Positions 10,881 to 32,000 of a stretch of 32,000 bases of DNA are shown piece by piece. The position numbers and the translations under genes are program-made. The notes beneath the pieces were generated by a model, which did no database searches, was not told the origin of the DNA, and saw only the letters and a program-made list of their open reading frames with translations. Origin of the DNA: Geobacter metallireducens GS-15. GTDB taxonomy: Bacteria; Desulfobacterota; Desulfuromonadia; Geobacterales; Geobacteraceae. The stretch lies in NCBI RefSeq assembly GCF_000012925.1, contig NC_007517.1, forward strand, positions 2,340,001-2,372,000, read 5' to 3'. Within the stretch, counting starts at the first letter, position 1. The number at the start of each line of letters is the position of its first letter.

Positions 10881-11074
10881 GCACTTTTTTCTTCACGCTC
10901 CGGCCACGTCGGTGCCACCTGAAGCGGAATCGTGAAATTACCGGATGTTGTGGAGAAGTTCGGGGAATCGGGAGAAAACCTGGTGTGAGCACGGCGTCAC
11001 ACATTCATGATTTTTAATTTCTATTTCATCAAAAGTTGCGTATAGTTGCCGAAATTCCCTGCCCCGAGAGAACA

Positions 11075-11526: not shown

Positions 11527-11604
11527 ATTACTCTAACTGCTCAATAACGGGTTACCGAATAAAAAACAGACTGCTCGGACCCAATCTGATCCGGAGGATT
11601 ACAA

Positions 11605-12078: not shown

Positions 12079-13408
12079 AAAACTAAACCTTTTTGATTCA
12101 ATAAGTTAGCGAACTGTGCTATATTTTTACGCGTAACAATCTGAATTTACAGGAGAAAAGTTATGCGCGGCGCCGAGACAAAAACCGAAGCTCTGTTCTG
12201 TTATCTCTCCCCTGAGTCGTACGTCCCGAAGGACCACCCCTTGCGGTCGATCAGGGCGATGGTGGATAAGGCCCTTGCAGAGCTCAGCCCGCAATTCGAG
12301 GCCATGTACTCCCACACCGGCCGGCCCTCGATTCCTCCTGAGCAGTTGCTTAAAGCACTTCTGCTTCAGGCGCTGTACACCATCAGGAGTAACCGTCTGC
12401 TGGTGGAGCAGATCAGCTACAGCATCCTGTTCCGCTGGTTTGTGGGATTGGCCCTGGACGAGAAGGTCTGGGACCACTCCTCGTTTTCCACCAACCTGGA
12501 GCGGTTGATCGATACCGACGTGGCACGGCTGCTCTTGGCAAAAGTAGTTGAGCAGGCCCGAAGGGCAAAGCTGTTGTCCGACGAGCACTTCAGCGTTGAC
12601 GGCACCCTCATCGAGGCGTGGGCTTCTATCAAGAGCTTTCGGCCCAAGGATGGACCAAAGCCTCCAGTGGGTCGTAACACGGAGCGTGATTTCCACGGCG
12701 AAAAGCTCAAAAACGACACCCATGCCTCCACCACCGATCCGGATGCGCGGATTGCCAGGAGAAGCTCGGGCAAAGAGGCGAAGCTCAGTTACCACGGGCA
12801 CGCTCTCATGGAGAACCGCAACGGGATCATCGTCGATGCCAGAATCACCCACGCAACCGGTACCGCTGAGCGGGATACCGCAGTCGAGATGATCGCAGAC
12901 GTCGCCGGTAACAAGCGGATCACCATGGGCGGCGACAAGGGCTACGACACCAAAGAGTGCGTCAAAGATCTGCGAGCACTCAAGGTAACCCCTCACATTG
13001 CTCAGAACACCGCTAACCGCCGCTCAGCCATCGATGGCAGGACTACCCGCCACGAAGGCTACAAAACCAGCCTGAGGATTCGCAAGCGGATCGAAGAGGC
13101 CTTCGGCTGGCTCAAGACTGTCGGCAATCTCCGCAAGACCCGGCATCGGGGAATAGCGAAAGTCGACTGGTACTTCACCATGGCCATTGCGGCATACAAT
13201 CTGGTCCGGCTGCGCAATCTCGGGACGAAAACGGCATAATCAGGGGAATAATGCGACTCTTGGTGGCAAAGCCCGCCCGAAAAGGCCAAATCAAGGTAAA
13301 AAGCAAAGTTTCAAAGAACGAATAGGGCGAGATCAATGCAACTATCGGCCTAAAATGATCTCCTTGAAGGGGATTGCCCTGGAAATGAAGGAGTTTTTCA
13401 ACGGCCTG
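12068..13408 (+). mobile_element. IS5-family insertion sequence, 1341 bp, complete
   Basis: Terminal inverted repeats are CAGGTTGTTGAAAAACT (12068-12084) and the reverse complement of AGTTTTTCAACGGCCTG (13392-13408), matching at 15 of 17 positions. They are flanked by a direct TTAG (12064-12067 and 13409-13412). The element has a single transposase gene and a higher GC content than the surrounding islet. Confidence 0.8.
12163..13239 (+). CDS. IS5-family DDE transposase (358 aa)
   Basis: The N-terminal InsH-type domain is present (SIPPEQLLKALLLQALYTIRSNRLLVEQISYSILFRWFVGL). A C-terminal DDE region is present (DKGYD..., EEAFGWLK). AGGAGA SD. Confidence 0.9.
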   Translation: MRGAETKTEALFCYLSPESYVPKDHPLRSIRAMVDKALAELSPQFEAMYSHTGRPSIPPEQLLKALLLQALYTIRSNRLLVEQISYSILFRWFVGLALDEKVWDHSSFSTNLERLIDTDVARLLLAKVVEQARRAKLLSDEHFSVDGTLIEAWASIKSFRPKDGPKPPVGRNTERDFHGEKLKNDTHASTTDPDARIARRSSGKEAKLSYHGHALMENRNGIIVDARITHATGTAERDTAVEMIADVAGNKRITMGGDKGYDTKECVKDLRALKVTPHIAQNTANRRSAIDGRTTRHEGYKTSLRIRKRIEEAFGWLKTVGNLRKTRHRGIAKVDWYFTMAIAAYNLVRLRNLGTKTA

Positions 13409-13431
13409 TTAGAAATTGGTTATCTGAAAGA

Positions 13432-16400
13432 TTGCAATTTAAAGACGAATCCATGCAACAATTCGTTGCTGAGATCATTTCAGAAAATGACATCCTTCCT
13501 TTTTGGAACGATGAACTTTGGATATCCATTCTTCTTTCAGATCATTCAGCAACGTTTTTTGTATTATTCAAAGAAGAATTGCTCAGCAATGATCAGGCAC
13601 TATTAAAAAGACTGACCTTTCTGTTAAGGCTTGCCTGTAAGGATGTTGACAATGACTTGCTCAAGCTACTAGGGGTAGACGACTTAAATCTGTTATCAAT
13701 TAAATATGTGCTGACCAAACCTAAGGGTTCAGGCTGGCAAAATGCCATACGATTTATACATGATAATTTGGAAAAAATAGGCATTAAGAATATTCATTTT
13801 GCTCTCCCATTAATCCATGAATGGAATCAAAAGAATAGGCAGGGAGAGACAACAAAATCATCGAGCCTGATAGCCCTTAAATATTATCAATGGACAATTG
13901 AAGAGGATGTTTACCTGTCGAGAGGCGATGATAAAGAAAAGATATTGCAAACCATTCTCAGCGGAGCTTCCGAAATTAAGACTGAATTGGAGGGGATATT
14001 CAAGGAAGTTCTAGAAAATAAGTGGAACAATCATAGAGACCCTTATTATGATCTGATGAAAGTAATTCTGAAGGAGATGGATGCTCTTCCAGTTTGGGCT
14101 ATTTTCCCGGAACATGTCTTGGAAATAGCCGACTTATTTTGGTTCTATATTCCTCAAAAATATAACCATTACTACCATCGGATGGATATTGAAGACGAAT
14201 TTTGTTTAAATCATAGTCATTACGATTATTTCCCATCAAGTCCGTATCAAACACCCATCTATTGGCTACTTCAGTGTTCGCTCCAAAAAACCGTGGACTT
14301 CATCTTATCTTTCACAAACAAGACTGTTGAATGTTTTGCTAGTTCTAGTGTTGGAAAGAATGAAATAGAAGAAGCTGTCGTTATTATTGATGATCTTTCA
14401 ATAAAACAATACATATGCAACAAACTTTGGTGTATGTACAGAGGCACACAGGTTTCCACGCAGCTTCTTGAATCAATTCACATGGCTTTAGAAAAGTTCT
14501 TCCTTGAATCAGCCAAGAAGCAAGATTCAAAAATACTCGAAAGCTGGCTGATATATATTTTGAAGAACTCAAAATCTGCTTCGCTGTCAGCAGTAGTTAC
14601 CAGCATAGTATTAGCGTATCCAGAAAAGACATTTAATGTCGCTAATATACTTTTCCAGACAAAGCTTTTCTTTCTATATGATGTGAATAGGTTCAGTTTG
14701 GATCAGTCTCATAAAAGCTCTCTTCTCATGCTGAAAAAGAATTTTGGAGGAGGTAACTATAAAAATGCTCCCCATGAAGAAGAGAGAATAAAATCTTGCG
14801 ATGAACCACATAGAAAAGTGCATCTTGAAAATTTGGCATTAAATTATCAGTTTTTCAGGAGCGAAGAAACAAGCGAGGACGAGGCCAACGAGAGACAACG
14901 GGTCATTTGGTCTGTCTTCGACAAATATTATAGCGAGTTGCCCGATGAGACTAAAGAGAATGATGGCGATAAGACATGGAGACTCTTTCTTGCAAGAATG
15001 GATCGACGCAAGATGAAGCCAACAACCGAAGCGACAAATGATGGAGTTCTGATCAATTTCAATCCTGAAATTGATCCAAGGCTTAAGGAATATAGCGAAG
15101 AGGCTGTTAAGAAAAGTTCCGAGCCAATGAAATACATGTCGTTGAAATTATGGGCAAGTTACAAGAAGGACAAGGATGAACGCTTTAAGCAATATGTGCA
15201 GTATGAAAACAGCCCTCAACTCGCTTTAAAGGAAGTGAAGGAAATAATCGACAGGTTTAAAAAAGGAGAGGATGAAAGCTTCCATCTTTTCAATCGTTCC
15301 ATACCGGGAGAAGTTTGCTCTATCTTAGCTAAACATCATTTCGACAAACTTTCTGAAGATGAAAGAAATTTTTGCAAAGATGTTATTCTGGAGTATGCGC
15401 AAGCCTCACTAACGCCTAATTATCATTACCAGATTTCTGATGGAACCGACTCGGCTATTTCGGCATTGCCGACACTTCTGCAATATTATCCAGAAGAACG
15501 CGACGGCATAAAAATGATTCTGCTCCTTACCTTGTTTGATAATTCCTCGATTGGGATGTGGGGAGGCCATTATAGCGTTTTCCCCAGCATGGCAATTCAT
15601 CAATTGTGGGAAAGCCATTTTGATGACATGCAATCCTTGCTTATCGGATATCTGCTGCTTAAGCCCAGGCATGTAGAGATGAGGAGGAAGCTTCAACTGG
15701 ATGGCTACGAGAACGGGGTATATGAGATTCCCGATGGGCAGGACCTCCGGAACTTCTTTCAAGAATATGAGCCTGTTCTGGAAAGAGTTGCGGAGAACAA
15801 GGTATCAATATCTGATCTGAAGGATATTGAGCAAACAGATTTATACATCCTGAACACAGCCTTTCAACTTATTCCCTTGAAGACAATCCACGCCGAACAT
15901 ATAAAGTTAGCACTGACCATAATTGCAATCTTCGCCAGCCATCTATTGTCTCGCGATAAAAAGGACAAGGTTGACTATTCTGTCCGGCATTCATTCTTGG
16001 AAAGATTTACTTACCTTGTTCTGAATTCTTCCGAACAAGATGTTTCGGAATATCTGAAACCGTTCCTGGATAATTTCAACGGTTCAGAAACGGCGGCTGA
16101 GCTACTAGAGCAATTTGTTTTAGCCCAAGACCGGATAGATGCTTATGACCGGTTTTGGCAAGTTTGGACCCTATTTTTTGGGAAAATAGTCGCTCTGTGC
16201 AAAGATGGCGATGGATATTGGTACGTCGACAGGATTGTAAGGAGCTATCTATTCGCACAAACTCAATGGAAAGAAACGGCGACGGATTGGCATACTTTTA
16301 AGGACGGCAATAGCAAATTTTTCGCGGATGTTGCTAAAAATATCGGTCATTGTCCATCAGTCTTATACTCGCTTGCGAAATCGTTAAACGATATAGCAAG

Positions 16401-16647
16401 CAGATATCTTAATTTTGGAATTTCGTGGCTGTCAGGGATGATGACCGCCCATAAGCAATTGTGGACTTCAAAGTTGGAAACTAACACTCAATACTATCTT
16501 GAAAATCTTGTTAGGAAATATATCTACAAAGAACGCGAAAAAATAAGAAGGACTAAGCAGTTAAAAGAAGAGGTTTTGGTAATATTAGAATTTCTAATTG
16601 AGAGAGGCTCCGTTGTTGGATATATTCTGCGAGAAAATATCCTATAA
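13432..16647 (+). CDS. Large (1071 aa) AT-rich orphan protein, predicted all-alpha/helical-repeat, no recognisable catalytic motif
   Basis: A long uninterrupted ORF in 40%-GC DNA is unlikely to be a shadow ORF. The start is unclear: TTG 13432 or ATG 13453, neither with a convincing SD. I found no Walker A, HxH, DxD or Cys-cluster motifs by eye. Confidence 0.7.
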   Translation: MQFKDESMQQFVAEIISENDILPFWNDELWISILLSDHSATFFVLFKEELLSNDQALLKRLTFLLRLACKDVDNDLLKLLGVDDLNLLSIKYVLTKPKGSGWQNAIRFIHDNLEKIGIKNIHFALPLIHEWNQKNRQGETTKSSSLIALKYYQWTIEEDVYLSRGDDKEKILQTILSGASEIKTELEGIFKEVLENKWNNHRDPYYDLMKVILKEMDALPVWAIFPEHVLEIADLFWFYIPQKYNHYYHRMDIEDEFCLNHSHYDYFPSSPYQTPIYWLLQCSLQKTVDFILSFTNKTVECFASSSVGKNEIEEAVVIIDDLSIKQYICNKLWCMYRGTQVSTQLLESIHMALEKFFLESAKKQDSKILESWLIYILKNSKSASLSAVVTSIVLAYPEKTFNVANILFQTKLFFLYDVNRFSLDQSHKSSLLMLKKNFGGGNYKNAPHEEERIKSCDEPHRKVHLENLALNYQFFRSEETSEDEANERQRVIWSVFDKYYSELPDETKENDGDKTWRLFLARMDRRKMKPTTEATNDGVLINFNPEIDPRLKEYSEEAVKKSSEPMKYMSLKLWASYKKDKDERFKQYVQYENSPQLALKEVKEIIDRFKKGEDESFHLFNRSIPGEVCSILAKHHFDKLSEDERNFCKDVILEYAQASLTPNYHYQISDGTDSAISALPTLLQYYPEERDGIKMILLLTLFDNSSIGMWGGHYSVFPSMAIHQLWESHFDDMQSLLIGYLLLKPRHVEMRRKLQLDGYENGVYEIPDGQDLRNFFQEYEPVLERVAENKVSISDLKDIEQTDLYILNTAFQLIPLKTIHAEHIKLALTIIAIFASHLLSRDKKDKVDYSVRHSFLERFTYLVLNSSEQDVSEYLKPFLDNFNGSETAAELLEQFVLAQDRIDAYDRFWQVWTLFFGKIVALCKDGDGYWYVDRIVRSYLFAQTQWKETATDWHTFKDGNSKFFADVAKNIGHCPSVLYSLAKSLNDIASRYLNFGISWLSGMMTAHKQLWTSKLETNTQYYLENLVRKYIYKEREKIRRTKQLKEEVLVILEFLIERGSVVGYILRENIL
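13438..13466 (+). other. Candidate -1 frameshift site: T_TTA_AAG heptamer (13438-13444) followed by hairpin ACGAAT-N10-ATTCGT (13445-13466)
   Basis: The heptamer is in the X_XXY_YYZ phase of the IS-restored TM ORF frame. A -1 slip enters the 1071-aa ORF frame. The hairpin starts with no spacer, which is atypical. Confidence 0.3.
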
Positions 16648-16688
16648 ACATAACTGGGAATAAAGAATATAAATTTGTTCAACCAAGC

Positions 16689-16712
16689 GCACCACCGGTC
16701 AAGCCGGTGTGC
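16689..16712 (+). terminator. Hairpin about 40 nt downstream of the 1071-aa ORF stop; possible terminator
   Basis: CACCGG (16693-16698) pairs with CCGGTG (16704-16709) around a 5-nt loop. A 1-nt bulge then allows 3 further bp. No U-tract follows. Confidence 0.3.
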
Positions 16713-16785
16713 TCTCCCCCGTTGGGCAATAAAAATGACAATTAAAGAACTCCATAAAATTCTTCTATTAATCGGCTTTGAAAAA

Positions 16786-16881
16786 TGACCCTACATAGGC
16801 AGTGGGTCAATCTTCCTTGGTAGCCTGATATCAATTAGTTATCAATGCTGGTGGGTCACCCTTAGACGCCGAAAAGGGTCA
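16786..16881. repeat. Four GGGTCA/TGACCC motifs clustered at the right edge of the AT-rich islet
   Basis: TGACCC is at 16786-16791. GGGTCA is at 16804-16809, 16853-16858 and 16876-16881. A direct ATCAAT...ATCAAT pair lies between them. Confidence 0.5.
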
Positions 16882-16897
16882 AAATTGGATGCCGATC

Positions 16898-18211
16898 CAC
16901 TACTGTCCGGTTAATAGTTGAATAAGTTCAGTTGGTTGCGCTCAGGATAATCAGCATTTCGCTTGAGAGCCTCCGCAACCAGCGATGAAATGGGCTTTTT
17001 CTCGAACAAGTTGACCTCCAGAATCTGTAGAAAAGTGTAGAGCGAACACGGAACCCCCAACTTCTTTTTCGTGATCGCCACCAGCAGATAGATGCACAAG
17101 GCAACCCATATCTGGCTCTTCACGGCATTGACTGACGTTCCGATGAACGACTTGATCCGCAGGTGCTGTTTGATCCATTTGAAAAACAGCTCCACCTGCC
17201 AGCGCTGCTTGTAAATCGCAGCCACCGTCGCTGCCGGAATCTCGAAGTTGTTCGTGAGAAATACGAGTCGCTTGTTCCGTTCTTTGTCAACATAGCTGAC
17301 CCGGCGCAGTTTCTCCGGATACCCCTTTTTCGACTTCTGCGTCACCAGGGTGATAATCTGGTCTGCCCGTACACCTGATTCCTTGTCCTTCGGATGGGAA
17401 TATAACCGCTGGCATTTCAGGTTGTCCTTTGCCCGAACTACGAAGAATGCTCCCTGCTTGTGGATGGAGTGGAGCCGGGCAAAATCGACATACCCTCTGT
17501 CCATCGTGTAAATGGCATCCTTTGCAACCGGCAGATGGTCCAGCATCCTGACATCGTGGACCTTGCCAGTGGTAATAGTGACCCAGGTCGGAATGGGACC
17601 ACGCAGATCAATGAGCGTATGCATCTTGACCGCCGCCTTGGTTTTGCGGAACTCGGCCCATGGGAACAGCGTAAGGCACAGGTCGATAGTGGTCGAGTCA
17701 AAGGCGTAGAGCGGTTGCGTAAGCTCAACGGAGATGGCATCAGCCTGGTACAGCTGCTGAGCTATGCCGATCAGTACATGACCGAAGTCTTGGAAGATAC
17801 GCCAGTCCCTGCGCTCGTTCGCGTCGGCAAGGGTCGTGCGGGAGACATCACCACGAAAGCCGATGTGGTACAGCTTCTCCTGGTGGGAGTTCAGGCAGGT
17901 CTCGATATCCCGCAAGCTCTCACGGCCAGCCATCTGGGCATAAGCCAGGCAGAGGAACTGGTCATAGGTCGAGAACTTCTTCTCCCGATACTCGCCACGG
18001 TGTCGGCGAACGCAGAGATTGAATTCGTACCGGGGCAGAAACTGCAGAAGTTGTTTGAAAACGGTCGGACCGGTGTGCATTGCTCCCCTCCTGTAAAGGG
18101 AGGAAGGCTACACTCAGAACGAATTCATGTCGAAAAAAGAACAATTGTGCCAAAGAGCAATAAAGTTCAACAAGTTACAGCTGTACAATCAAAGTTTACC
18201 GGACAGTAGTA
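16898..18211 (-). mobile_element. IS4-family insertion sequence, 1314 bp, complete
   Basis: The ends are CACTACTGTCCGGT (16898-16911) and ACCGGACAGTAGTA (18198-18211), an inverted match at 13 of 14 positions. They are flanked by a perfect 9-bp direct repeat ATGCCGATC (16889-16897 and 18212-18220). The transposase stop codon lies inside the left end. Confidence 0.8.
16911..18080 (-). CDS. IS4-family DDE transposase (389 aa)
   Basis: The N-terminal DUF4372-like region is present (FKQLLQFLPRYEFNLCVRRH...YDQFLCLAYAQMAGRESLRDIE). A DDE_Tnp_1-type core is present (AFDSTTIDL, YTMDRGYVDF, YKQRWQVELFFKWIKQ). AGGAGGGGAG SD. Confidence 0.9.
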   Translation of the reverse strand: MHTGPTVFKQLLQFLPRYEFNLCVRRHRGEYREKKFSTYDQFLCLAYAQMAGRESLRDIETCLNSHQEKLYHIGFRGDVSRTTLADANERRDWRIFQDFGHVLIGIAQQLYQADAISVELTQPLYAFDSTTIDLCLTLFPWAEFRKTKAAVKMHTLIDLRGPIPTWVTITTGKVHDVRMLDHLPVAKDAIYTMDRGYVDFARLHSIHKQGAFFVVRAKDNLKCQRLYSHPKDKESGVRADQIITLVTQKSKKGYPEKLRRVSYVDKERNKRLVFLTNNFEIPAATVAAIYKQRWQVELFFKWIKQHLRIKSFIGTSVNAVKSQIWVALCIYLLVAITKKKLGVPCSLYTFLQILEVNLFEKKPISSLVAEALKRNADYPERNQLNLFNY

Positions 18212-21246: not shown

Positions 21247-22152
21247 TCAGGATATGTACGCTGCCAGGGCAATGGTAAGGAGCATGGTTTCGGCCGAATC
21301 GGAGCGGGACGTGAGCACGATCGGCGCTTTCGCCCCCATCACCGCGGTGGCGATCCGCTGCTGGGTGTAGTAGACCAGGCATTTGCGCAGGGGATTGGCC
21401 GAGAGGAGGTTGGGGGCCATGATGATATCCGCCTGGCCGGCCACCTCGCCTTTGATCTTCTTGTACTTGGCCGCCTCCTGGGATATGGCGTTGTCAAAGG
21501 CCAGCGGCCCCTCGACAAGACACCCTTCGATCTGGCCCCGCTCTGCCATCTTGCTCAAGGCCGCAGCCTCGATGGTGTCGGGCATGGCGGGATTGACCAC
21601 CTCGACGGCCGAGATGACCGCCACCTTCGGCAGCGTGTTTCCCAGCTTATGGGCCAGATCGACGGCGTTTTCGATGATCTGCTTTTTCTCGTCCAGGGTC
21701 GGCTGCACGTTGATGGCGCAATCGGTGAGAAAGCGGAACCCGCCTCCCGGTGCGTCGACGATCTTTTCGTAGATGGTGATCTCGCTGATTACCCTGTTGT
21801 CGTTCAGCCCCTTCTGCTTGTCCAGGATTGCCCGCATGAAGGTGGCGGTGGGAAGGTTCCCCTTCATGATGGCGTTGGCGCTTCCCACAACCACCAGCCT
21901 GACCGCCTCTTCCGCCGCATCCTTCTGGTTCGGAATATTGATTATGTTGATGAGGTTCGAATCAAAGCCGGCCTCGGCCGACATGGTCTTTATCTTCCCT
22001 TCGTCACCCACAAGGATGAATTCGGCCAGTTTCGCATCCAGCGCCTGCTTGACCAGCTTCATCACCGTCGTCCCCTCCGGGGAGACGATGGCTATTTTCT
22101 TCTTCGGTTTTTCCTGTACGGCAGCGATCAGTTCATCGAATGATTTGATCAT
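21247..22152 (-). CDS. Phosphate acetyl/butyryltransferase (Pta/Ptb) family protein (301 aa)
   Basis: The PTA_PTB layout is present (KIAIVSPEG..., AIMKGNLPTATFMRA, VISAVEVVNP, APIVLTSRSDS). The start is at MIKSFDE (ATG 22152) with AAGGAGA SD. The 26 upstream codons of the track ORF were discarded. Confidence 0.85.
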   Translation of the reverse strand: MIKSFDELIAAVQEKPKKKIAIVSPEGTTVMKLVKQALDAKLAEFILVGDEGKIKTMSAEAGFDSNLINIINIPNQKDAAEEAVRLVVVGSANAIMKGNLPTATFMRAILDKQKGLNDNRVISEITIYEKIVDAPGGGFRFLTDCAINVQPTLDEKKQIIENAVDLAHKLGNTLPKVAVISAVEVVNPAMPDTIEAAALSKMAERGQIEGCLVEGPLAFDNAISQEAAKYKKIKGEVAGQADIIMAPNLLSANPLRKCLVYYTQQRIATAVMGAKAPIVLTSRSDSAETMLLTIALAAYIS

Positions 22153-22246
22153 TTCTACTCTCCTTTTGAATTGAAATCCCTCTCCCTCCCCGCACCTACG
22201 GGACCGGCGGCAACGGCACCCATCGCACATTCATAAAATATTGTTT

Positions 22247-22564: not shown

Positions 22565-24289
22565 TCAAGCATTGCCCCCTATTACCGCCACCTCTCCTTC
22601 ATGCAGCCGGTTCAATCGGTAGGCAAACTGACGCCGGGTCAGGCCGAGTTTCCTGGCAGCCGAGGCAAGATTGCCGCCGGTCTTGCTCACAGCGGTTTCA
22701 ATCAACATGGCCTCCAGCTGATCCAGCGTCATGGCGCCACTGAAAACCATCTCGCAAATTTCTTCAGCGCCTTTCCCGCGCCTGCCGTTAAGATCGCCGT
22801 TGCCGTCGAGCCCGAGTTCATGGGCATGCTCGTCGCCGCTGGCCGAAAACATATGCTCCAGCTCGATGCGGGTGCCGCTTGGGGCAAGAATGACGCCACG
22901 CTCAATCATGTTCTGCAGTTCGCGAATGTTGCCCGGCCAGGGATATGCCAGGAGCGAGCGTTTGGCCTTATCGGTGAAGCCACGCAGTTTCTTGCCGTGG
23001 ATCGCGGAATATTTTTCCAGGAAACGTCGGGCAAGCAGTGAAATATCCTCCTTGCGCTCCCTGAGAGGGGGGATGTTGATCTGGAAGGCATTGAGCCGAT
23101 AATAGAGGTCCGACCGGAACCTCCCCTCCTGGACCAGTTGCTTCAGATCGATGTTGGTCGCTGCCACCAAGCGCACATTGACCTTACGGGTTTTATGGTC
23201 GCCGACGCGTTCGAGCTCACCTTCCTGCAAGACACGCAAGAGCTTGGCCTGCGCCGAAAGGGGCAAATCACCCACCTCGTCGAGAAACAACGTACCGCCG
23301 TTTGCCCGTTCGAAGCGCCCGGCACGGGCCGTTACTGCCCCGGTATAGGCACCCTTTTCAACGCCGAACAACTCGGATTCCACCAGATCATGGGGAATTG
23401 CCGCACAGTTTATGGCGATGAAGGGTTCTTTGTTGCGGGCACCACTGGCGTGGAGGGTCCGGGCGAACACCTCTTTGCCAACGCCGGTCTCCCCCAGGAG
23501 CAGCACCGTAATCTGACTTTTGGCCGCCTGCTGGAGCAAATCATAGGCCGCCCGGAAGACCTTTGAATTGCCGACAACGTCTTCGGGAAGCTTTTCCTTT
23601 TTGTTTATGGCGGAGCGGAGCTGTATCACCTGGGTCTGCAGGTCAATGAGCTGCTCGGCAATGGACTCCCGACTGAAAAGACGCGCATAGTCACGTGCGT
23701 CATCCCATTCATCGATCGGCTTGCCGATGATGCGGCAATGAGTATCTCCCATCCCTATGCATTCCACTTCCTTGTACAAAATCGGTCGTCCCATGAAGGC
23801 CGTCGAGTAGCCGCAGGCGTAACCGATCTGACTCCAGCAGACCGGCTCGGAACAGGCTCCATAGTGGCGCTTGTGCCATTGGCCTTCCCATGAGTTCTCC
23901 CAGATAAATTCGCCGTAGAAGCTTCCTGTTGTTCGATCAAAGTCAACCTTGACCGGTGTTACATTTGCTTCTCCCTCCAGCTTATGGAGCATTGGCCCGG
24001 TCATAAAAAGTTCCACATCCGTCGCGCCCTCAACGCGCGTACAGACGAGTTCGGCATCGTGCATGCCGGCCGCGTACCCCATGCGCGTGAGCAGCCCCTG
24101 TACGCGCTCTATGCCGAGCGTATCAATCAGCTCCCTCCGCAGAGTGGCCTGCGCCTCGGCATGCACCAGGAGCATGCGATGCTCGTGCAGCCAAATATTC
24201 CCTGATTCCCTACAGAAATGCACCCGTCCGAGGAGATCGCCGTCCGTCAATGTGCAGCCAGGCTTATCGGAACGTCGCTGTTTAGTCAT
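22565..24289 (-). CDS. Sigma54-dependent transcriptional activator of the XylR/DmpR (NtrC-family, aromatic-sensing) type, 574 aa
   Basis: The N-terminal XylR_N/V4R-like sensing region has conserved Cys and Trp ([12 protein letters not shown]...[11 protein letters not shown]). The AAA+ sigma54-interaction core carries [14 protein letters not shown] (a GAFTGA variant) and ESELFG. The C-terminal Fis-type HTH reads [16 protein letters not shown]. Confidence 0.9.
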
Positions 24290-24797: not shown

Positions 24798-24813
24798 TGG
24801 CACAGAGCATGCT
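24798..24813 (+). promoter_or_regulatory. Sigma54 (-24/-12) promoter of the pps/ppc operon: TGGCAC-AGAGC-ATGCT
   Basis: TGGCACAGAGCATGCT matches TGGCAC-N5-TTGCW at all core positions except one T. The predicted TSS is near 24824, about 100 nt upstream of ATG 24923. It is divergent from a sigma54 activator gene. Confidence 0.6.
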
Positions 24814-24922: not shown

Positions 24923-26752
24923 ATGAAATTTCCAAAACCACATGATGTCAGGACAATCCCTGGAACAGAAGGTTGGGAGAGAATGTATCCGTACCAGTAC
25001 CAGTTCGTCACTGACGACCCGGAACGGATGACGTACGAGGCGCAATCCTTCTGGTTTTATGATGGACTCCACTATCCCGAACCGATCTACCCCTTCGACA
25101 CGATCTGGGATGAGGCCTGGTACCTGGGGTTGTCCCAGTACAACAACCGCATCTTCCAGGTGCCGCCGGTGCGCGGCGTCGACCACCGGATCATCAACGG
25201 CTACGTGTATATCTCGCCGGTTCCGGTAACAGACCCGGAAGAGGTAGGGAGCCGCGTACCCAACTTCATGGAGCGCGCGGGCTATTACTACAAAAACTGG
25301 AATGAGCTGGAGGCCAAGTGGGAACTGAAGATGAAAGGGATCATCAAGCAGATCGAAGAACTGCCGATCCCCAGCCTCCCCGATCTTGAAGATATCAGCG
25401 TGGTCACTGAAGGAATCGGCGAATCAAAGGGATTCCATCTGATCAAAGCCTACGACGACCTGATCAACCTGGGTATCCAGTGCTGGCAGTACCACTTCGA
25501 ATTCCTCAACCTCGGCTATGCCGCCTACGTCTTTTTTCTCGACTTCGTGCAAAAGCTCTTCCCGAGCATCCCGCTGCAGCGGGTGACCCAGATGATCGCC
25601 GGTATCGACGTGATCATGTACCGCTCCGACGACGAGCTGAAAAAACTGGCCAAGAAAGCCATCGAACTGGGGGTCGACCTGATCCTGACCAACTGCGGGG
25701 AGTGGCAGGATGCCGAGACCGCGCTGAAGGCGCATCCGAAGGGGAGGACCTGGCTGGATGCCCTGGAAGAGGCCCGGTATCCCTGGTTTCACGTCTCCAC
25801 CGGCACCGGCTGGTCCCACAGCGACAAGTCGTGGAACGACGACCTGAACATTCCGCTTTCCGGCATCGCCACCTATATCAATCAGCTCAGGCAGGGGATG
25901 GACATAGAACGGCCGATGGAAAAGGTGCGAGCCGAACGGGACCGGATCACCGAGGAGTACCGCGACCTCATTACATCGGACGAGGACCGCAAGACCTTCG
26001 ACGAACTGCTCGGCACCGCCAAGACGGTCTTCCCCTATGTGGAGAACCACCTCTTCTACGTCGAGCACTGGTTCCACACCGTGTTCTGGAGAAAAATGCG
26101 CGAAGTGGCGGCCATCATGAAAGAGCACGGCATGTTCGAGGACGTGGAGGATGTCTGGTATCTGCGCCGGGATGAAATCAAGCAGGGGCTGTGGGACATG
26201 GTCACCGCCTGGGCAACCGGCGTCAAGCCCCGGGGCACCGCGGTATGGCCCAAGGAGATCGCCTGGCGCAAAGGGGTGATGAAAAAGTTCCAGGAGTGGA
26301 GTCCGCCGCCGGCCGTCGGTATCCCCCCCGAAGTGATCCGGGAGCCGTTCACCATCGTGCTCTGGGGGGTCACCAACTCCTCCATCTCGGACTGGTCCGA
26401 AGTACAGGACATCTCCGATCCGGACAGCATCACCACCCTGAAAGGGTTTGCCGGCAGCCCCGGCGTGGTGGAGGGGAAAGCCCGGGTCTGCCGCAGCGCG
26501 GACGACATCCGCCTGCTGCAGGAGGGAGAAATTCTAGTGGCCCCCACCACCTCGCCCTCCTGGGCACCGGCCTTTGCCAGGATCAAGGGGGCAATCACCG
26601 ATGTGGGGGGAGTCATGAGCCACGCGGCAATCGTCTGCAGGGAATACGGCATGCCGGCGGTGGTCGGCACCGGCCACGCGACGAAGATCATCCGGACCGG
26701 CATGATGCTCCGGGTCGACGGCGCCACCGGCGTCGTCACCATAGACCGCTGA
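24923..26752 (+). CDS. ppsA: Phenylphosphate synthase alpha subunit type (PEP-synthase-like, carries the phospho-His swivel domain), 609 aa
   Basis: The C-terminal PEP-utilising mobile domain is present (GGVMSHAAIVCREYGMPAVVG). The N-terminus MKFPKPHDVRTIPGTEGWERMYPYQYQF resembles what I recall for PpsA. GGGAGA SD precedes ATG 24923. The 79 upstream codons of the track ORF cover the promoter and were discarded. Confidence 0.8.
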   Translation: MKFPKPHDVRTIPGTEGWERMYPYQYQFVTDDPERMTYEAQSFWFYDGLHYPEPIYPFDTIWDEAWYLGLSQYNNRIFQVPPVRGVDHRIINGYVYISPVPVTDPEEVGSRVPNFMERAGYYYKNWNELEAKWELKMKGIIKQIEELPIPSLPDLEDISVVTEGIGESKGFHLIKAYDDLINLGIQCWQYHFEFLNLGYAAYVFFLDFVQKLFPSIPLQRVTQMIAGIDVIMYRSDDELKKLAKKAIELGVDLILTNCGEWQDAETALKAHPKGRTWLDALEEARYPWFHVSTGTGWSHSDKSWNDDLNIPLSGIATYINQLRQGMDIERPMEKVRAERDRITEEYRDLITSDEDRKTFDELLGTAKTVFPYVENHLFYVEHWFHTVFWRKMREVAAIMKEHGMFEDVEDVWYLRRDEIKQGLWDMVTAWATGVKPRGTAVWPKEIAWRKGVMKKFQEWSPPPAVGIPPEVIREPFTIVLWGVTNSSISDWSEVQDISDPDSITTLKGFAGSPGVVEGKARVCRSADDIRLLQEGEILVAPTTSPSWAPAFARIKGAITDVGGVMSHAAIVCREYGMPAVVGTGHATKIIRTGMMLRVDGATGVVTIDR

Positions 26753-26773
26753 GAAAACCGGACAGAGGAGGCA

Positions 26774-27928
26774 ATGGACATGAGCACTGCAGTGAACATG
26801 CATGACAAAAGGTGGGGAAACAAGTACGGAACCGTCCGTTCGGCAGGGAAGGTCACGCCGCTGGTCTGCTGGTTCGAGGAGTGCCGGAAGGATTCGGTCC
26901 CCCTGGTGGGTGGGAAGTGTTCATCCCTCGGCGAGCTGATAAGCGCCGGCGTACGGGTCCCTCCCGGCTTTGCGCTCACCACCGAGGGGTATCGCCGCTT
27001 CATGACCGACGCCGGGATCGACCGGGAGATTCAATCCATGGTGTCCGGTCTCGACGCCGGTGACATGGAGGCACTGGAGAATACCAGCGGGGCGATCCGG
27101 GAAATGATCGAGGCCCACCCCTTCTCCGCCGAGATAGAAGACCTGGTGGCGGAGAGATACCGCAAGCTGGCGGTGCGCTCCTGCCTGCCGGCGGTGCCGG
27201 TGGCGGTCCGCTCCAGCGCCACGGCCGAGGACCTGCCCGGCGCGAGCTTTGCCGGCCAGCAGGACACCTACCTCTGGGTCCGTGGTGCGGACGAGGTGCT
27301 GCACAACATGCGGCGCTGCATCTCCAGCCTCTACACCGGCCGGGCGATAGCCTACCGGATCAACCAGGGGTATGCCGACGAGCAGGTGGCGATCAGCGTG
27401 GGGGTGCAGAAGATGGCCAACTCGTTCACCGCCGGGGTGATGTTCACCCTTCACCCGGGCAACGGCGACCGCTCGGTGATCGTCATCGACTCCAACTACG
27501 GGTTCGGCGAGTCGGTGGTTTCGGGGGAAGTGACCCCGGACAACTTCGTGGTCAACAAGATCACCATGGATATCCTGGAGCGGACCATTTCACAGAAGGA
27601 TATCTACTACACGGTGGACCAGAAGACCCAGGTGTCCCGCCCCATCGAGGTCCCGTTCGAGCGGCAGAAGGTACAGTCGCTCATGGACGACGAGATCACC
27701 GAACTGGCCAAGATGGGAAAGCTGATCGAAAAACATTACGGCCGCCCCATGGACATCGAATGGGCAGTGGACAAAGACCTCCCCTTCGGCGGCAACATCT
27801 TCATCCTGCAGGCGCGGCCGGAAACGGTCTGGAGCCAGAAACAGCAACCGCCGGGAGCAGCCAAGGGCGGCGCTTCCGCCATGGACTACATCCTGGCCAG
27901 CATGCTGGAAGGGAAGCGGCTGAACTAA
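26774..27928 (+). CDS. ppsB: Phenylphosphate synthase beta subunit type (PPDK_N / ATP-grasp nucleotide-binding domain), 384 aa
   Basis: The VAVRSSATAEDLPGASFAGQQDTYLWV and DIEWA motifs of the PEP synthase/PPDK N-terminal domain are present. GAGGAGG SD. Confidence 0.82.
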   Translation: MDMSTAVNMHDKRWGNKYGTVRSAGKVTPLVCWFEECRKDSVPLVGGKCSSLGELISAGVRVPPGFALTTEGYRRFMTDAGIDREIQSMVSGLDAGDMEALENTSGAIREMIEAHPFSAEIEDLVAERYRKLAVRSCLPAVPVAVRSSATAEDLPGASFAGQQDTYLWVRGADEVLHNMRRCISSLYTGRAIAYRINQGYADEQVAISVGVQKMANSFTAGVMFTLHPGNGDRSVIVIDSNYGFGESVVSGEVTPDNFVVNKITMDILERTISQKDIYYTVDQKTQVSRPIEVPFERQKVQSLMDDEITELAKMGKLIEKHYGRPMDIEWAVDKDLPFGGNIFILQARPETVWSQKQQPPGAAKGGASAMDYILASMLEGKRLN

Positions 27929-27980
27929 CCCCTCGGAAGCCCACGGTTGCTTCACAAAACCCAACAGATAAGGAGGCAGT

Positions 27981-29525
27981 ATGAGCACAACACAGCTTAA
28001 AGTGAAAGAGATCAACGAAGAACTCGACTCACGGCCCGCGGTACCCCCCATCAACGACATTCGCAGCTACATCGCAGCACTGGAAGCCCATGGGGTACTC
28101 CACCGCGTCAAGGCCGAAGTGGACTGGAAATTCGAACTTGCCCACATCTCCAAGGTGAATGAAGAGCAAAAGGGCCCGGCATTGCTCTATGAGAACGTCA
28201 AGGGGAACACTATCCCGGTTTTCACCAGCGCCTTCACCACCCCCGAACGTATCGCCATCTGCCTGGAACAGGACCCGTCCCTCTCCATGTGCCAGCTTTC
28301 CCGGAAATGGATGGAGCTGACCACCAAGCAGATGATCAAGCCGACCTTTGTCAAGAACCCGCCGGTCATGGAAAACATCATTGAAGAAAAAGATGTGGAC
28401 CTGGAAAACTTCCCCGCCCCCTGGTTCTATCCCGATGACGGCGGCCGCTTCTTCGGCACCTCCGGGTACCTGGTGACCCAGGACCCGGATACGGGCTGGA
28501 CAAACCTGGGCACCTATCGTTCCCAGATCCTGGGCAAGAACATCCTCGGCTCCCAGATCATCAGCGGCAAGCACGGCGACTTCCACATGAAAAAGTACCA
28601 GGAGCGGGGCGAGAAGATGCCGGTCGCCTACGTGGTGGGGGGCGATCCCATACTGTTTTTGGCCTCCTCCACCCTGGTCAGCGCCCAGACCGATGAATAC
28701 GACGTGGGGGGCGCCCTGCGCGGCCGTCCCATCGAAGTATTCAAGTCGGATCTTACCGGACTGACCCTGCCGGCCAACGCCGAGATCATCGTCGAAGGGT
28801 GGATGGATCCCGAGGAGTTGATGGAAGAAGGGCCGTTCGGCGAGTACACCGGCTATTACTCGGGCAACAAGATGAAGGACTATCCCAAGCCGGTCATCCG
28901 CGTGAAACGGATCATCCATCGCAACAAGCCGATCTTCTGGTCAACCACGGTCGGCAAGCCGATCAACGACACCCACATGGTCCAGTCCATCAACCGTACG
29001 GCCACCCTGTGGCACGACTTGGAGACCATGAAAGTGCCGGGCATCCAGAGCGTCTACTTCCCCGCTGCGGCCACCGGCCGTTTCTGGGTCGTCGCCTCGG
29101 TCAAGCAGATGTATCCGGGTCACTCGAACCACGTGGCCGATGCCATCAACGGCAGCACCACCGGTCACTACGGCGTCAAGGGGATCATCATCGTCGACCA
29201 TGACATAGCCGCCGACGACATGGATCGTGTCTGGTGGGCGCTGGCCGTACGTTTCGATCCGAAACGCTCAACCCAGATCATCACCCGCGGACGCTCTACC
29301 CCGCTCGACCCGGGCCTCCCCATCGAGGCGCGCGACGTGGTCAGCCGCATCATCCTGGATGCCACCATACCATACGAGTGGAAAAACAAGCCGAACGAGA
29401 TCTTCATGGATCGGACGGTGCTGCAGAAGGTTTCCGACCGCTGGAATGAATACGGCTTCACCGGCGCAAGCCCGGTCGCCGAGATGATCCCGCGTCTCAC
29501 CCGGCCGGAAGTGAAGAAAAAATAG
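27981..29525 (+). CDS. ppcB: UbiD-family (prFMN-dependent) carboxylase/decarboxylase, phenylphosphate carboxylase subunit type, 514 aa
   Basis: The UbiD signature EGPFGEYTGYY is present and the overall length fits the family. AAGGAGG SD. It lies directly downstream of ppsAB. Confidence 0.8.
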   Translation: MSTTQLKVKEINEELDSRPAVPPINDIRSYIAALEAHGVLHRVKAEVDWKFELAHISKVNEEQKGPALLYENVKGNTIPVFTSAFTTPERIAICLEQDPSLSMCQLSRKWMELTTKQMIKPTFVKNPPVMENIIEEKDVDLENFPAPWFYPDDGGRFFGTSGYLVTQDPDTGWTNLGTYRSQILGKNILGSQIISGKHGDFHMKKYQERGEKMPVAYVVGGDPILFLASSTLVSAQTDEYDVGGALRGRPIEVFKSDLTGLTLPANAEIIVEGWMDPEELMEEGPFGEYTGYYSGNKMKDYPKPVIRVKRIIHRNKPIFWSTTVGKPINDTHMVQSINRTATLWHDLETMKVPGIQSVYFPAAATGRFWVVASVKQMYPGHSNHVADAINGSTTGHYGVKGIIIVDHDIAADDMDRVWWALAVRFDPKRSTQIITRGRSTPLDPGLPIEARDVVSRIILDATIPYEWKNKPNEIFMDRTVLQKVSDRWNEYGFTGASPVAEMIPRLTRPEVKKK

Positions 29526-29537
29526 GACATCCAAGCA

Positions 29538-29563
29538 CTCCCTCCCCCCTGCGGGGGAGGGGG
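29538..29563 (+). other. Strong GC hairpin (11 bp including one G-U) in the 67-nt spacer between the UbiD-like and UPF0261 genes
   Basis: CTCCCTCCCCC (29538-29548) pairs with GGGGGAGGGGG (29553-29563) around the loop CTGC. No U-tract follows. Confidence 0.4.
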
Positions 29564-29592
29564 GACTTCCCGATCCCAAAGGAGTAGACACC

Positions 29593-30849
29593 ATGGCCCA
29601 GAAAAAGGGAATCGTCATCATCTGCAACCTGGACACCCGGGGCGAGGACATCATTTTCGTCAAACAGCTGATCGAGACGCGGGGGCACAACGCCTATTTC
29701 CTCGATTTCAGCATGGAGGAACCCCCTCCCTTTGCTGGCGATATCACCTGCGAGCACGTGGCCGAGCGCGGCGGCATGACCATCGAGGCGGTGCGCGAAT
29801 GCTACCGCTCTGACCGTGACCGGGCGATGGAAAACCAGATCAGGGGCGCCAGCGCCATCGTTGCCGACATGATGAAAGAAGGAAAGATCCAGGGGGTCTT
29901 TGGCGTTGGCGGCGGGACATCATCGCTCGTCGGCACCAGCGTCATGAAAGGGGTCCCCTTCGGGATCCCGAAGCTCATGGCCTCCCCCATGGCGGCGCAT
30001 CCGTCCTACGTGGGCAAATACGTGGGAACCCACGACATCACCATGCACCATACGGTGCTCGACGTGGTAAAAATGAACCCGCTCCTGAAGGCACAGATCA
30101 CCAATGCGGTGGGCGCCATCTGCGGCATGGTCGAGATGACCCAGGGGACGAACATCACCTTTGACAAGCCATGCGTCGCCATCTCCTCGTTCGGTTTCGG
30201 CGAAATGGCCGTGCAGACCGCCCTCGGCATGCTGGACGAGGCCGGTTTCACCCCTATCGTCTGCCATGCGCAGGGAAAGGGGGACAAGGCAATGGAGGAT
30301 ATGATCCGTGCCGGCGCCTTCCATGGCGTGCTGGACATCTGCACCGGCGGCATTGTCGAAAACCTCTTCAAGGGGAACCGGGACCCGGGGCCCGACCGGT
30401 TCATGGCAGCGGTGGAGACCGGCATTCCCATGGTGCTGGCCCCCTGCGGCCTCGATATCCTCTCCTATGGCGGGCGCCCCGACATGCTGGAGAAGACCAA
30501 GGACCGGCCCCAGTACGTGCAGGACTCCCTGAGGGTCCAGGTACGCACCACCGCCGACGAACTGCGCCAGGCCGCCGACGTGATTGCCGAACGGCTCAAC
30601 CGGGCCAACGGGGAGTGGACCTTCCTGATCCCCCTGAAAGGGTGGTCGTCCCAGGACCTTGAAGGACGGATCATCTACGATCCGGCCGCCGATGCCGCCT
30701 TCGTTGCCCGGCTGAAAGAAAAACTGGATGAACCGGAGCGGGTCAAGGAAGTCGATCTGCATCTCTACACGAAGGAATTCGCCCGGGTCGCCGTCGACGA
30801 GTTCGTGCGGCTGTACGAGGGAACGCCGGCCCAGGCAGTGGCCGGTTAA
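29593..30849 (+). CDS. UPF0261 / Tm-1-like ATP-binding-domain protein (418 aa), function unknown
   Basis: The N-terminal motif is IVIICNLDTRGEDIIFVKQLIE and a glycine-rich motif GVFGVGGGTSSLVGTSVM is present. The family assignment is from memory and needs HMM confirmation. AAAGGAG SD. Confidence 0.65.
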   Translation: MAQKKGIVIICNLDTRGEDIIFVKQLIETRGHNAYFLDFSMEEPPPFAGDITCEHVAERGGMTIEAVRECYRSDRDRAMENQIRGASAIVADMMKEGKIQGVFGVGGGTSSLVGTSVMKGVPFGIPKLMASPMAAHPSYVGKYVGTHDITMHHTVLDVVKMNPLLKAQITNAVGAICGMVEMTQGTNITFDKPCVAISSFGFGEMAVQTALGMLDEAGFTPIVCHAQGKGDKAMEDMIRAGAFHGVLDICTGGIVENLFKGNRDPGPDRFMAAVETGIPMVLAPCGLDILSYGGRPDMLEKTKDRPQYVQDSLRVQVRTTADELRQAADVIAERLNRANGEWTFLIPLKGWSSQDLEGRIIYDPAADAAFVARLKEKLDEPERVKEVDLHLYTKEFARVAVDEFVRLYEGTPAQAVAG

Positions 30850-30863
30850 AAGGAGAGTGCGCG

Positions 30864-31304
30864 ATGATAGTCCGCAACTGGATGCAAAACAACCCTCTTA
30901 CGATTTCGAGCGACACCCTGGCCTCTGAAGCAAAGCGGCTGCTTCTCGACAACAACCTGAATGCCCTGCTCGTGGTGGACAATGGACGTTTGCGCGGCCT
31001 GGTGACGCGGCACAATGTGATGCGCATGGGGCACTATGTCACGCGCACCCAGAATCCGGACGAAGTCAGTTTCTTCGTCAACCGGCTTAAGGTCAGGGAT
31101 TTCATGGTCCGCAATCCGGCCACCGTGGATGCGAACGACACCATGGAACACTGCCTTGAATACGGCAAGGAGCTGATGGTGGCCCAGTTTCCCGTCATGG
31201 AAAACGGTTCGGTGGTGGGAATCATATCCGCCAACGAGATCTTCCAACTGGCGGCCCATCTGTGCGGGACCATGGAAGCGGAGAAAATGCGGAAAGCGCA
31301 GTGA
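30864..31304 (+). CDS. CBS-pair domain protein (146 aa)
   Basis: There are two CBS repeats (VRNWMQNNPLTISSD...ALLVVDNGRLRGLVT and VRDFMVRNPATVDAN...FPVMENGSVVGIIS). AAGGAGA SD. Confidence 0.85.
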   Translation: MIVRNWMQNNPLTISSDTLASEAKRLLLDNNLNALLVVDNGRLRGLVTRHNVMRMGHYVTRTQNPDEVSFFVNRLKVRDFMVRNPATVDANDTMEHCLEYGKELMVAQFPVMENGSVVGIISANEIFQLAAHLCGTMEAEKMRKAQ

Positions 31305-31391
31305 TGCCGGGACCCGGTCCTGACGTCTCGGCAACGATTGCGGGATTATCCCGCCACCCCGTCAACGACAAACGGAGAAAGGAGCAAGACC

Positions 31392-31997
31392 ATGAGCCTT
31401 CCATTGGTAGTGGCAATCACCGGCGCAACAGGCGTGATCTACGGGGTGGAGATGCTGAACGTGCTGAAGGAACTGGGTCAGGAAACCCATCTCATCGTCA
31501 GCGAGGCCGCCGGCAAGAACCTAGAGATCGAGACATCATACTCCCTTGACGAGGTCCGGGCCTTGGCCGACGTCGTCTATGACAACAAGGATATCGGCGC
31601 CTCGGTGGCCAGCGGCTCGTTCCGCACCCGCGGCATGATCGTGGCTCCTTGCACCGTAAAGACGCTTTCGGCCATTGCCAACTCGTTCACCTACAACCTG
31701 GTGATACGCGCCGCCGATGTAACCCTGAAAGAACGGCGCCCCCTGGTGCTCATGGTGCGCGAAACACCTTTGCACAAGGGGCACCTGGAGCTCATGTCGC
31801 GCGCCACCGACTGCGGCGCCCAGATATTGCCGCCAATGCCGGCCTTCTACCACAAGCCGGAGTCAATCATGGACATCGTCCACCAGAGCATCGGCAAGGC
31901 TCTGGACCAGGTGGGGATCGAGCACAATCTCTTCAAGCGCTGGCACGGGGACAACCGGAAGGAGCAGGTTCGGGAGTCCCTCAGAATCGCCAATTAA
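31392..31997 (+). CDS. ubiX: UbiX-type flavin prenyltransferase (makes prFMN for UbiD enzymes), 201 aa
   Basis: VVAITGATGVIYG, MIVAPCTVKTLSAIA and PLVLMVRETPL are flavoprotein/UbiX motifs. ATG 31392 has AAAGGAG upstream. The track start at 31338 is TTG without an SD. Confidence 0.9.
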   Translation: MSLPLVVAITGATGVIYGVEMLNVLKELGQETHLIVSEAAGKNLEIETSYSLDEVRALADVVYDNKDIGASVASGSFRTRGMIVAPCTVKTLSAIANSFTYNLVIRAADVTLKERRPLVLMVRETPLHKGHLELMSRATDCGAQILPPMPAFYHKPESIMDIVHQSIGKALDQVGIEHNLFKRWHGDNRKEQVRESLRIAN

Positions 31998-32000
31998 TGC

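Follow-up and report, generated by a model that had tools for sequence, protein, structure and literature searches.

A conserved UPF0261 protein as a candidate partner of the lone UbiD-type carboxylase in the phenol-activation operon of Geobacter metallireducens

Introduction

The subject of this report is a six-gene operon for the activation of phenol in Geobacter metallireducens GS-15 (assembly GCF_000012925.1), located at positions 24923–31997 of a 32,000-nucleotide stretch of contig NC_007517.1 (positions 2,340,001–2,372,000, forward strand) that was analysed as a whole and is referred to below as the window. The genes lie on one strand, separated by spacers of 14–67 bp, in the order ppsA, ppsB, ppcB, a gene for a protein of the UPF0261 family, a gene for a CBS-pair protein and ubiX (Table 1). 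Comparative data single out the UPF0261 protein, which is very highly conserved and set apart from the true kinases of its family, as the candidate partner of the single carboxylase subunit PpcB, and they identify the CBS-pair gene as a displaced ppsC.

The operon appears to be the published phenol-activation locus of this organism. The pps-ppc cluster of G. metallireducens, with ppsA, ppsB and ppcB as Gmet_2100–2102 (Butler et al., 2007; PMC1924859), likewise combines ppsA and ppsB with a single ppcB in a putative operon, and a composition with a ppc-beta homologue only and no gamma subunit was already published according to the papers that cite it (Schleinitz et al., 2009, cited in PMC6114531 and PMC7500099). 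Neither the operon nor the minimal make-up of its carboxylase is therefore new. The question has stood since 2009 of how a carboxylase that has a single UbiD subunit and lacks alpha, gamma and delta subunits turns phenylphosphate into 4-hydroxybenzoate, and with it the question of how energy-poor iron and sulphate reducers afford the anaerobic carboxylation of phenol.

Results and discussion

Gene content of the operon

Profile models bear out the core of the first-pass annotation of this DNA, in which ppsA and ppsB are followed by a single UbiD-family gene and ubiX closes the set. PpsA carries the mobile domain of phosphoenolpyruvate (PEP)-utilizing enzymes (Pfam PF00391, residues 533–603). 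Homology to the Thauera enzymes establishes PpsA, PpsB and PpsC as the proteins expected to phosphorylate phenol to phenylphosphate while converting ATP to AMP and phosphate, and UbiX as the expected source of prenylated flavin mononucleotide (prFMN) for PpcB. The assignment of the 418-residue and 146-residue proteins by profile, suggested earlier as a check, returned PF06792 plus PF23189 for the former and two CBS repeats for the latter.

Table 1. Features of the phenol-activation operon and its upstream region (window coordinates)
Feature	Position	Strand	Evidence
ppsA, phenylphosphate synthase protein 1	24923..26752	+	NF006152 equivalog, 1396 bits (cut-off 723), residues 1-609 of 609
ppsB, phenylphosphate synthase protein 2	26774..27928	+	ATP-binding PPDK_N, PF01326, 386 bits
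ppcB, sole UbiD-family carboxylase gene, divergent 'type II' form	27981..29525	+	TIGR02724 phenyl_P_beta, 549 bits (cut-off 469)
UPF0261 gene, P-type, 418 aa	29593..30849	+	PF06792, 168 bits; PF23189, 227 bits
CBS-pair gene, ppsC orthologue, 146 aa	30864..31304	+	two CBS repeats
ubiX, flavin prenyltransferase	31338..31997	+	NF004685, 254 bits (cut-off 188); TIGR00421, 243 bits (cut-off 109)
XylR/DmpR-type sigma-54 activator, divergent	22565..24289	-	Pfam XylR_N, V4R, Sigma54_activat, HTH_8
-24/-12 (sigma-54) promoter-like element, TGGCAC-N5-ATGCT	24798..24813	+	read from sequence; ~110 nt before ppsA start
GC-rich 11-bp intercistronic hairpin, ppcB/UPF0261 gap, no U-tract	29538..29563	+	RNA fold

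The claim that ppcB is accompanied by no gene for an alpha, gamma or delta subunit also holds, both nearby and across the genome, which is 100% complete in two contigs (3,997,420 and 13,762 bp). No PpcA (alpha, TIGR02723) scores above cut-off anywhere in the genome, the top match being PpcB itself with only 182 bits against a cut-off of 565. PpcC (gamma, TIGR02725, ∼10 kDa) has no match in the complete genome, an absence that is meaningful because the same model, used as a positive control, recovers PpcC in two classical genomes. For PpcD (delta, a KdsC-like HAD protein, TIGR02726) the sole genome-wide match, at 1.44 Mb, is sub-threshold (157 bits versus a cut-off of 282) and is taken to be a KdsC-type phosphatase. 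The UPF0261 protein had further been described as lacking its usual PEP-hydrolase-like partner domain, and indeed the PEP-hydrolase TIM barrel PF09370 has no match anywhere in the complete genome.

A search for ppcA, ppcC and ppcD immediately beyond position 32000, as had been advised, found none in the 18 kb downstream of the window. The genes there encode a butyrate-kinase-like protein, a porin (Phenol_MetA_deg), a protein with an HD domain and a sigma-54 activator and, further downstream, a second UPF0261 paralogue, a convergent HAD-IA phosphatase and two MobR-like activators.

A cassette conserved across species

One genome per species was scanned, which gave 121 relatives of the UPF0261 protein, and 80 loci were kept and compared by tblastn with the window proteins; presence counts below are among loci with enough flanking sequence. 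Close homologues of the UPF0261 protein (78–92% identity) occur in Geobacter, Geotalea, Georgfuchsia, Rhodocyclaceae and Burkholderiales. The survey of UPF0261 beside UbiD and UbiX genes that had been suggested earlier found the order ppsA-ppsB-ppcB-UPF0261-ppsC-ubiX in nearly all of the 80 loci (∼80 species), and since the same order recurs so widely the arrangement is not due to chance. Cassettes were found in Geobacterales, Burkholderiales, Rhodocyclales, Alpha- and Gammaproteobacteria and Myxococcota, so that this 'Geobacter type' of cassette is widespread, with many representatives in Burkholderiales and Rhodocyclales. The ppcB gene lies directly upstream of UPF0261 in 68 of 69 loci, a porin gene being inserted between the two in the exception, and the other members are present almost as regularly (ppsA 57/59, ppsB 60/63, ppsC 72/76 and ubiX 64/69). 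Median identities to the window proteins are 79% for UPF0261, 80% for PpcB, 79% for UbiX, 76% for both PpsA and PpsB and 68% for PpsC; UPF0261 is as conserved as PpcB in these loci. Within 10 kb, none of the 80 loci has a PpcA- or PpcD-like gene or, by tblastn, a PpcC, and any HAD-like open reading frame (ORF) at all is found within that distance in only 12 of them.

For comparison, four classical clusters were taken from Rhodocyclaceae genomes with a true PpcA. The order was worked out on one of them (L092), in which a divergent sigma-54 regulator is followed by ppsA, ppsB, a 223-residue CBS-pair gene, ppcB, ppcD, ppcA, ppcC, another UbiD-like gene, ubiX and then genes for a riboflavin-kinase-like protein, a NUDIX protein, a PaaK-like ligase and a porin; tblastn gave the same core order in the other three. 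None of the four contains a UPF0261 gene. The window shares with the Thauera aromatica/Aromatoleum-type arrangement (ppsABC-ppcBDAC-ubiD-like-ubiX) the divergent sigma-54 activator and much of its protein sequence (ppsA 75–78%, ppsB 71–74%, ppsC 59–61% and ubiX 51–55% identity). It differs in lacking the alpha, gamma and delta subunits and the additional UbiD gene, in the position of a shortened ppsC behind the carboxylase gene and in the addition of UPF0261. The PpcB proteins of both types pass TIGR02724 but are only 50–53% identical, far less than PpsA and PpsB, and classical PpcB reaches 1134 bits on this model versus 549 for that of the window.

Among 151 Rhodocyclaceae genomes, PpsA is encoded in 17. 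Eleven of these have PpcA, five have a UPF0261 gene ∼3 kb from ppsA and one more has a probable cassette UPF0261 split over small contigs; none of the 17 has both PpcA and a cassette UPF0261. As these genomes are kin, the exclusivity may reflect few independent events. The tally is based on adjacency to ppsA because NF002676, considered as a marker of the clade, proved unspecific and was rejected: it gives ∼555–594 bits on UPF0261 proteins that share only 25–27% identity with that of the window and lie in unrelated contexts (L095–L098).

The CBS-pair gene as ppsC

The first-pass annotation saw no ppsC-like stimulating subunit and offered the CBS protein as a candidate missing component of the carboxylase. 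The former statement was wrong. The CBS protein of the window is 61% identical over 138 residues (E = 2e-65) to the 223-residue protein encoded after classical ppsB, for which it is in turn the only significant match in this genome (the runner-up scores 25 bits). By this reciprocal-best-hit comparison the CBS-pair protein is the ppsC orthologue, moved and shortened, with ∼75 C-terminal residues absent, and the placement of ppsC after UPF0261 corrects the annotation of the gene. It follows that the protein belongs to the synthase and not to the carboxylase. Most cassette loci have a full-length ppsC (∼217 residues; 223 in classical clusters); the shortened 146-residue form, with its CBS pair intact, occurs in G. 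metallireducens and a few close relatives such as Geotalea toluenoxydans. A structural or regulatory role in the carboxylase has in its favour only the location of the gene between UPF0261 and ubiX rather than after ppsB, and in view of the orthology, and of the loss of this gene from all three of the pps-less modules described below, in which ppcB, UPF0261 and ubiX remain, we give this role hardly any credence.

Departures from the cassette

Two kinds of locus depart from the common arrangement and are informative about the UPF0261 protein. In the first, pps genes are missing. In two loci, L009 (8353–14725) and L030 (8387–11910), ppcB-UPF0261-ubiX follows the regulator immediately and ppsA, ppsB and ppsC are all absent; a third, L011, is a 3.5-kb contig with only UPF0261, ubiX and a MarK-like paralogue (K-type; see below), without ppsC in between and too short to hold ppcB or pps genes. 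The pps-less loci fall in two separate places of the tree, L030 grouping with one full cassette as its sister (support 99) and L009 with a different one (93). The L009 genome is 100% complete with 2% contamination, and the PpsA model scores no more than 38 bits in it; no PpsA was found in the L030 genome, the completeness of which is not established. The pattern in the three loci indicates that ppsA, ppsB and ppsC go missing as a set, whereas ppcB, UPF0261 and ubiX are retained as one. A K-type paralogue lies near each module (2.2 kb away, adjacent and 14 kb away on the same contig), and these K-types form one clade (support 100). That of the L030 module is at L104:6211–7470.

In the second, close relatives of the cassette UPF0261 protein occur in clusters of biotin-carboxylase genes that hold neither UbiD nor UbiX. 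A sub-clade, 73% identical and nested in the cassette clade, is found in four Geobacterales genomes (L099–L102, e.g. L100:4834–14020) in clusters with a MarK orthologue, a biotin carboxyl carrier protein, a biotin carboxylase, a carboxyltransferase, a PNPOx-like gene, a short-chain dehydrogenase/reductase and a thiolase; all four also carry a NagD-like HAD phosphatase, and DUF1302 is present as well. Each of these clusters holds two UPF0261 proteins. They look like an anaerobic pathway of the 4-hydroxyacetophenone/ethylphenol type, and in the 4-hydroxyacetophenone/acetovanillone pathway an aryl phosphate is the substrate of the carboxylase (PMC12624787; bioRxiv 10.1101/2022.04.28.489975). In one of the four genomes, which is 100% complete, both PpsA and a type-II PpcB are missing; the closest match to PpcB is 38% identical. 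The P-type protein is thus independent of UbiD, UbiX and prFMN. Two ideas were discarded. The protein does not displace a HAD phosphatase in the biotin-carboxylase clusters, the NagD-like HAD being conserved in all four, and small PNPOx-like or RibK-like proteins showed no similarity that would make them a common partner among the candidates compared, one frame of which is possibly wrong.

The UPF0261 protein and its relation to MarK

The only catalytic function known in the UPF0261 family is that of MarK (Saro_1862 of Novosphingobium aromaticivorans, PDB code 9MPY), a kinase that uses ATP to phosphorylate the phenolic hydroxyl of acetovanillone and other phenolics, forms ADP and requires Lys16, the equivalent of Lys20 of Tm-1, for activity (PMC12624787). 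The window protein aligns with 9MPY over residues 1–399 (170 bits, E = 8.5e-49) and with Tm-1 at E = 9e-44. The MarK-like paralogues score higher on 9MPY (236–451 bits), including the second paralogue of G. metallireducens (315 bits) and a Geobacterales protein encoded beside biotin carboxylase (451 bits). In a tree built from 98 UPF0261 sequences of the retrieved loci, the window protein falls in one tight clade of 86 sequences, here called P-type, with internal branches mostly below 0.3. This clade is separated from the MarK-like proteins, or K-types, by a branch of 2.9 substitutions per site with an SH-like approximate likelihood-ratio support of 100.

Site by site (Table 2), the window protein shares with MarK the two-domain architecture, Asp14 and Thr15 and both ligands of the phenolic oxygen. 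It differs in having arginine for Lys16 and in the replacement of the ring and ketone contacts Thr196, Phe283, Ile285, His304 and His348, as well as in always being accompanied by another kinase and in having a UbiD-type rather than a biotin-dependent partner carboxylase. The glycine equivalent to Gly195 is present in 81 of 82 cassette sequences and in all four biotin-cluster copies. The Gly/His pair is not specific, as Tm-1, which is non-catalytic, and a third, unrelated group of UPF0261 proteins also have it. From these comparisons we infer that the P-type is probably a specialised offshoot of the MarK family of aryl-hydroxyl kinases.

Table 2. Residues equivalent to MarK sites in 86 P-type and eight K-type UPF0261 proteins
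MarK residue	P-type	K-type	Remark
Asp14, Thr15	kept, all 86	kept, all 8	
Lys16	Arg in 86/86	Lys in 8/8	positive charge retained
Gly195	Gly201 in 85/86	kept	phenolic-oxygen ligand (backbone N)
His219	His225 in 86/86	kept	phenolic-oxygen ligand
Thr196	Phe202	Thr	
Phe283	Ile or Leu289	Phe	
Ile285	Ser291/Tyr292	Val	
His304	Gln310/Asp311	His	
His348	variable, Leu/Ile/Gln354	variable	ketone ligand

The second paralogue of G. metallireducens (466 residues; L004:5468–6868, genome C1:2376468–2377865) is located 5.6 kb downstream, after the sigma-54 activator. It retains Lys16, Thr196, Phe283 and His304 and is likely to be a true aryl kinase. In the literature that mentions UPF0261 we found no link to the carboxylation of phenol; the gene of the window, expected to be Gmet_2103, was not found in the literature searched, and no proteome evidence for its product was found in supplements of PMC7324539.

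Functional implications

The conserved cassette without ppcA, ppcC or ppcD makes UPF0261 a serious candidate for the missing component of the carboxylase, one of the roles that the first-pass annotation had suggested for it. Wherever the P-type occurs, there is also a distinct kinase, a carboxylase and an aryl phosphate as intermediate. We therefore put forward, tentatively and with slightly less than even confidence, that the UPF0261 protein handles the phosphoryl group of phenylphosphate on behalf of the lone PpcB, much as PpcD does in the classical enzyme. Phenol would be phosphorylated by a separate kinase, either PpsABC or, in pps-less clusters, the MarK-like K-type paralogue. The P-type protein would then bind phenylphosphate through Gly201 (backbone) and His225, with Asp14-Thr15-Arg16 as its nucleotide site, remove the phosphoryl group, with water or a bound nucleotide as acceptor, and hand the phenolate to PpcB. 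It would in this way do the work of the HAD-type delta subunit, and PpcA and PpcC would become dispensable. The conserved gene order, a conservation equal to that of PpcB, the mutual exclusion with ppcA, ppcC and ppcD, the divergence of PpcB from its classical counterpart, the retention of UPF0261 in pps-less modules that each have a K-type nearby, the full-length homology to a proven kinase of phenolic hydroxyl groups and the invariant or nearly invariant Asp14, Thr15, Gly201 and His225 together suggest such a role, which would be the second function for the UPF0261 family after MarK. According to the summary in PMC7500099, the Thauera delta subunit takes the phosphate off phenylphosphate; this delta subunit, PpcD, and the HAD-type phosphatases AcvF/HpeD (bioRxiv 10.1101/2022.04.28.489975; PMC12624787) have the role proposed here for UPF0261, which occupies the operon slot beside ppcB held by ppcD in classical clusters, although the folds are unrelated and the nucleotide site is retained in UPF0261.

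Several observations weigh against this proposal. Desulfatiglans anilini, like G. metallireducens a strict anaerobe, has a cluster of a PpsAB-type synthase, a UbiD-type carboxylase and UbiX without a gamma subunit (PMC6114531; PMC7500099); unlike the window, the cluster as described lists no UPF0261 and the two UbiD-like subunits come from different loci. With these two beta subunits alone it carboxylates phenylphosphoamidate (PMC7500099), and a UbiD-type enzyme may therefore be able to work by itself. A HAD-IA phosphatase is encoded ∼7 kb downstream in Geobacterales, and the NagD-like, AcvF-like HAD coexists with the P-type in all four biotin clusters, where the latter is thus not simply 'the phosphatase'. 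The exclusivity with PpcA, PpcC and PpcD may reflect one or a few evolutionary events and not functional replacement. No fusion of UbiD with UPF0261 was found among longer relatives, the one fused UPF0261 protein in that search having an ABC-ATPase domain and neither PF09370 nor UbiD, although this is weak evidence. Finally, the invariant nucleotide site is unexpected in a pure phosphatase and so suggests transfer over plain hydrolysis. In one form of transfer, UPF0261 would run the MarK reaction backwards, converting phenylphosphate and ADP to enzyme-bound phenolate and ATP. With PpsABC included, the pathway would be driven overall by the conversion of ADP to AMP and phosphate, which the stoichiometry permits. 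We consider this improbable. If true, it would lower the ATP cost of carboxylating phenol without oxygen by half, from two ATP equivalents to one, and would account for the invariant nucleotide site, for the loss of a phosphate-wasting delta subunit and for the reuse of the protein beside biotin carboxylases that act on aryl phosphates.

The family relationship also admits that the P-type is itself an ADP-forming phenol kinase like MarK, providing a cheaper second route beside the AMP-forming PpsABC while PpcB works alone, as the beta-only UbiD carboxylases of D. anilini do (PMC7500099). Full-length homology to MarK, the invariant or nearly invariant nucleotide-site residues and phenolic-oxygen ligands, and the ppcB-UPF0261-ubiX modules without pps genes, one of them in a 100% complete genome without PpsA, are all consistent with a kinase. 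The P-type is, however, never the sole kinase candidate where it occurs, PpsAB, a K-type or a MarK orthologue always being present; its pocket is remodelled at the very positions (Lys16, Thr196, Phe283 and His304, with valine for Ile285) that the K-types keep, the two groups are 2.9 substitutions per site apart, and a kinase would leave the absence of PpcA, PpcC and PpcD unexplained. We regard this reading as possible but doubtful. That UPF0261 is non-catalytic, whether as a regulator that binds a ligand, as a sensor or as a passenger that can be dispensed with, while PpcB and a phosphatase from elsewhere suffice, seems to us unlikely. Its relative Tm-1 works by binding and not by catalysis (PMC12624787), a HAD-IA phosphatase is at hand in Geobacterales and D. 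anilini takes its carboxylase subunits from other loci (PMC7500099), but an identity of ∼79%, equal to that of the catalytic PpcB, is maintained across phyla, UPF0261 is kept with ppcB and ubiX after the loss of pps, and most cassette loci lack a HAD gene.

A role in the supply of the cofactor, either by phosphorylating prenol to dimethylallyl phosphate for UbiX or by the maturation or loading of prFMN on PpcB, the latter having been raised by the first-pass annotation, could be argued from the position of UPF0261 two genes before ubiX, from its origin in a kinase family and from NUDIX, RibBA and HD-domain neighbours in some loci, which fit cofactor supply. We find it very unlikely, since classical clusters with two or three UbiD genes and UbiX do without UPF0261, Rhodocyclales cassettes hold both a NUDIX gene and UPF0261, the nested P-types reside in biotin clusters without UbiX (in one case in a 100% complete genome without a type-II PpcB) and the phenolic-oxygen ligands are conserved.

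Regulation and neighbouring genes

The divergent XylR/DmpR-type activator upstream of ppsA is likely to be the phenol sensor and regulator of the operon, and a homologous divergent regulator is found upstream of ppsA in most of the related loci. The only terminator-like match on the plus strand falls within ppcB and is at chance level. The folding energy of the hairpin between ppcB and UPF0261 is ordinary compared with shuffled sequences (z = −0.7), an unremarkable value owing to its composition. Of 78 related loci, ∼40 also have a strong stem between these two genes, with differing stem sequences, and this recurrence is a better argument for the hairpin than its folding energy. Many loci have a common GGCAGGCGGC...GCCGCCTGCC stem; in many Burkholderiales the two genes overlap or abut in place of a hairpin.

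Genes beside ubiX in several loci fit a supply of prFMN precursors. NUDIX, RibBA and H+-pyrophosphatase genes accompany it in L030 (12017–17094), a riboflavin-kinase-like gene and a NUDIX gene in the classical clusters (L092:14266–15284) and a NUDIX gene in Rhodocyclales cassettes; in G. metallireducens a gene for an HD-domain protein is nearby. A gene for a PTA_PTB phosphate acyltransferase-like protein (window 21247–22230, minus strand) lies just upstream of the regulator, and the butyrate-kinase-like gene (L004:1028–2107, plus strand) comes just after ubiX, a position in which it recurs in a few Geobacterales-type loci; the two could activate 4-hydroxybenzoate by way of an acyl phosphate rather than with an AMP-forming ligase.

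The window also contains a low-GC island (11000–17000; 37–44% versus ∼60%), which separates the phenol operon from the bam (benzoyl-CoA) genes. It includes a 1071-residue ORF (13432–16647) with no Pfam match and DDE transposase genes at 12163–13239 and 16911–18080.

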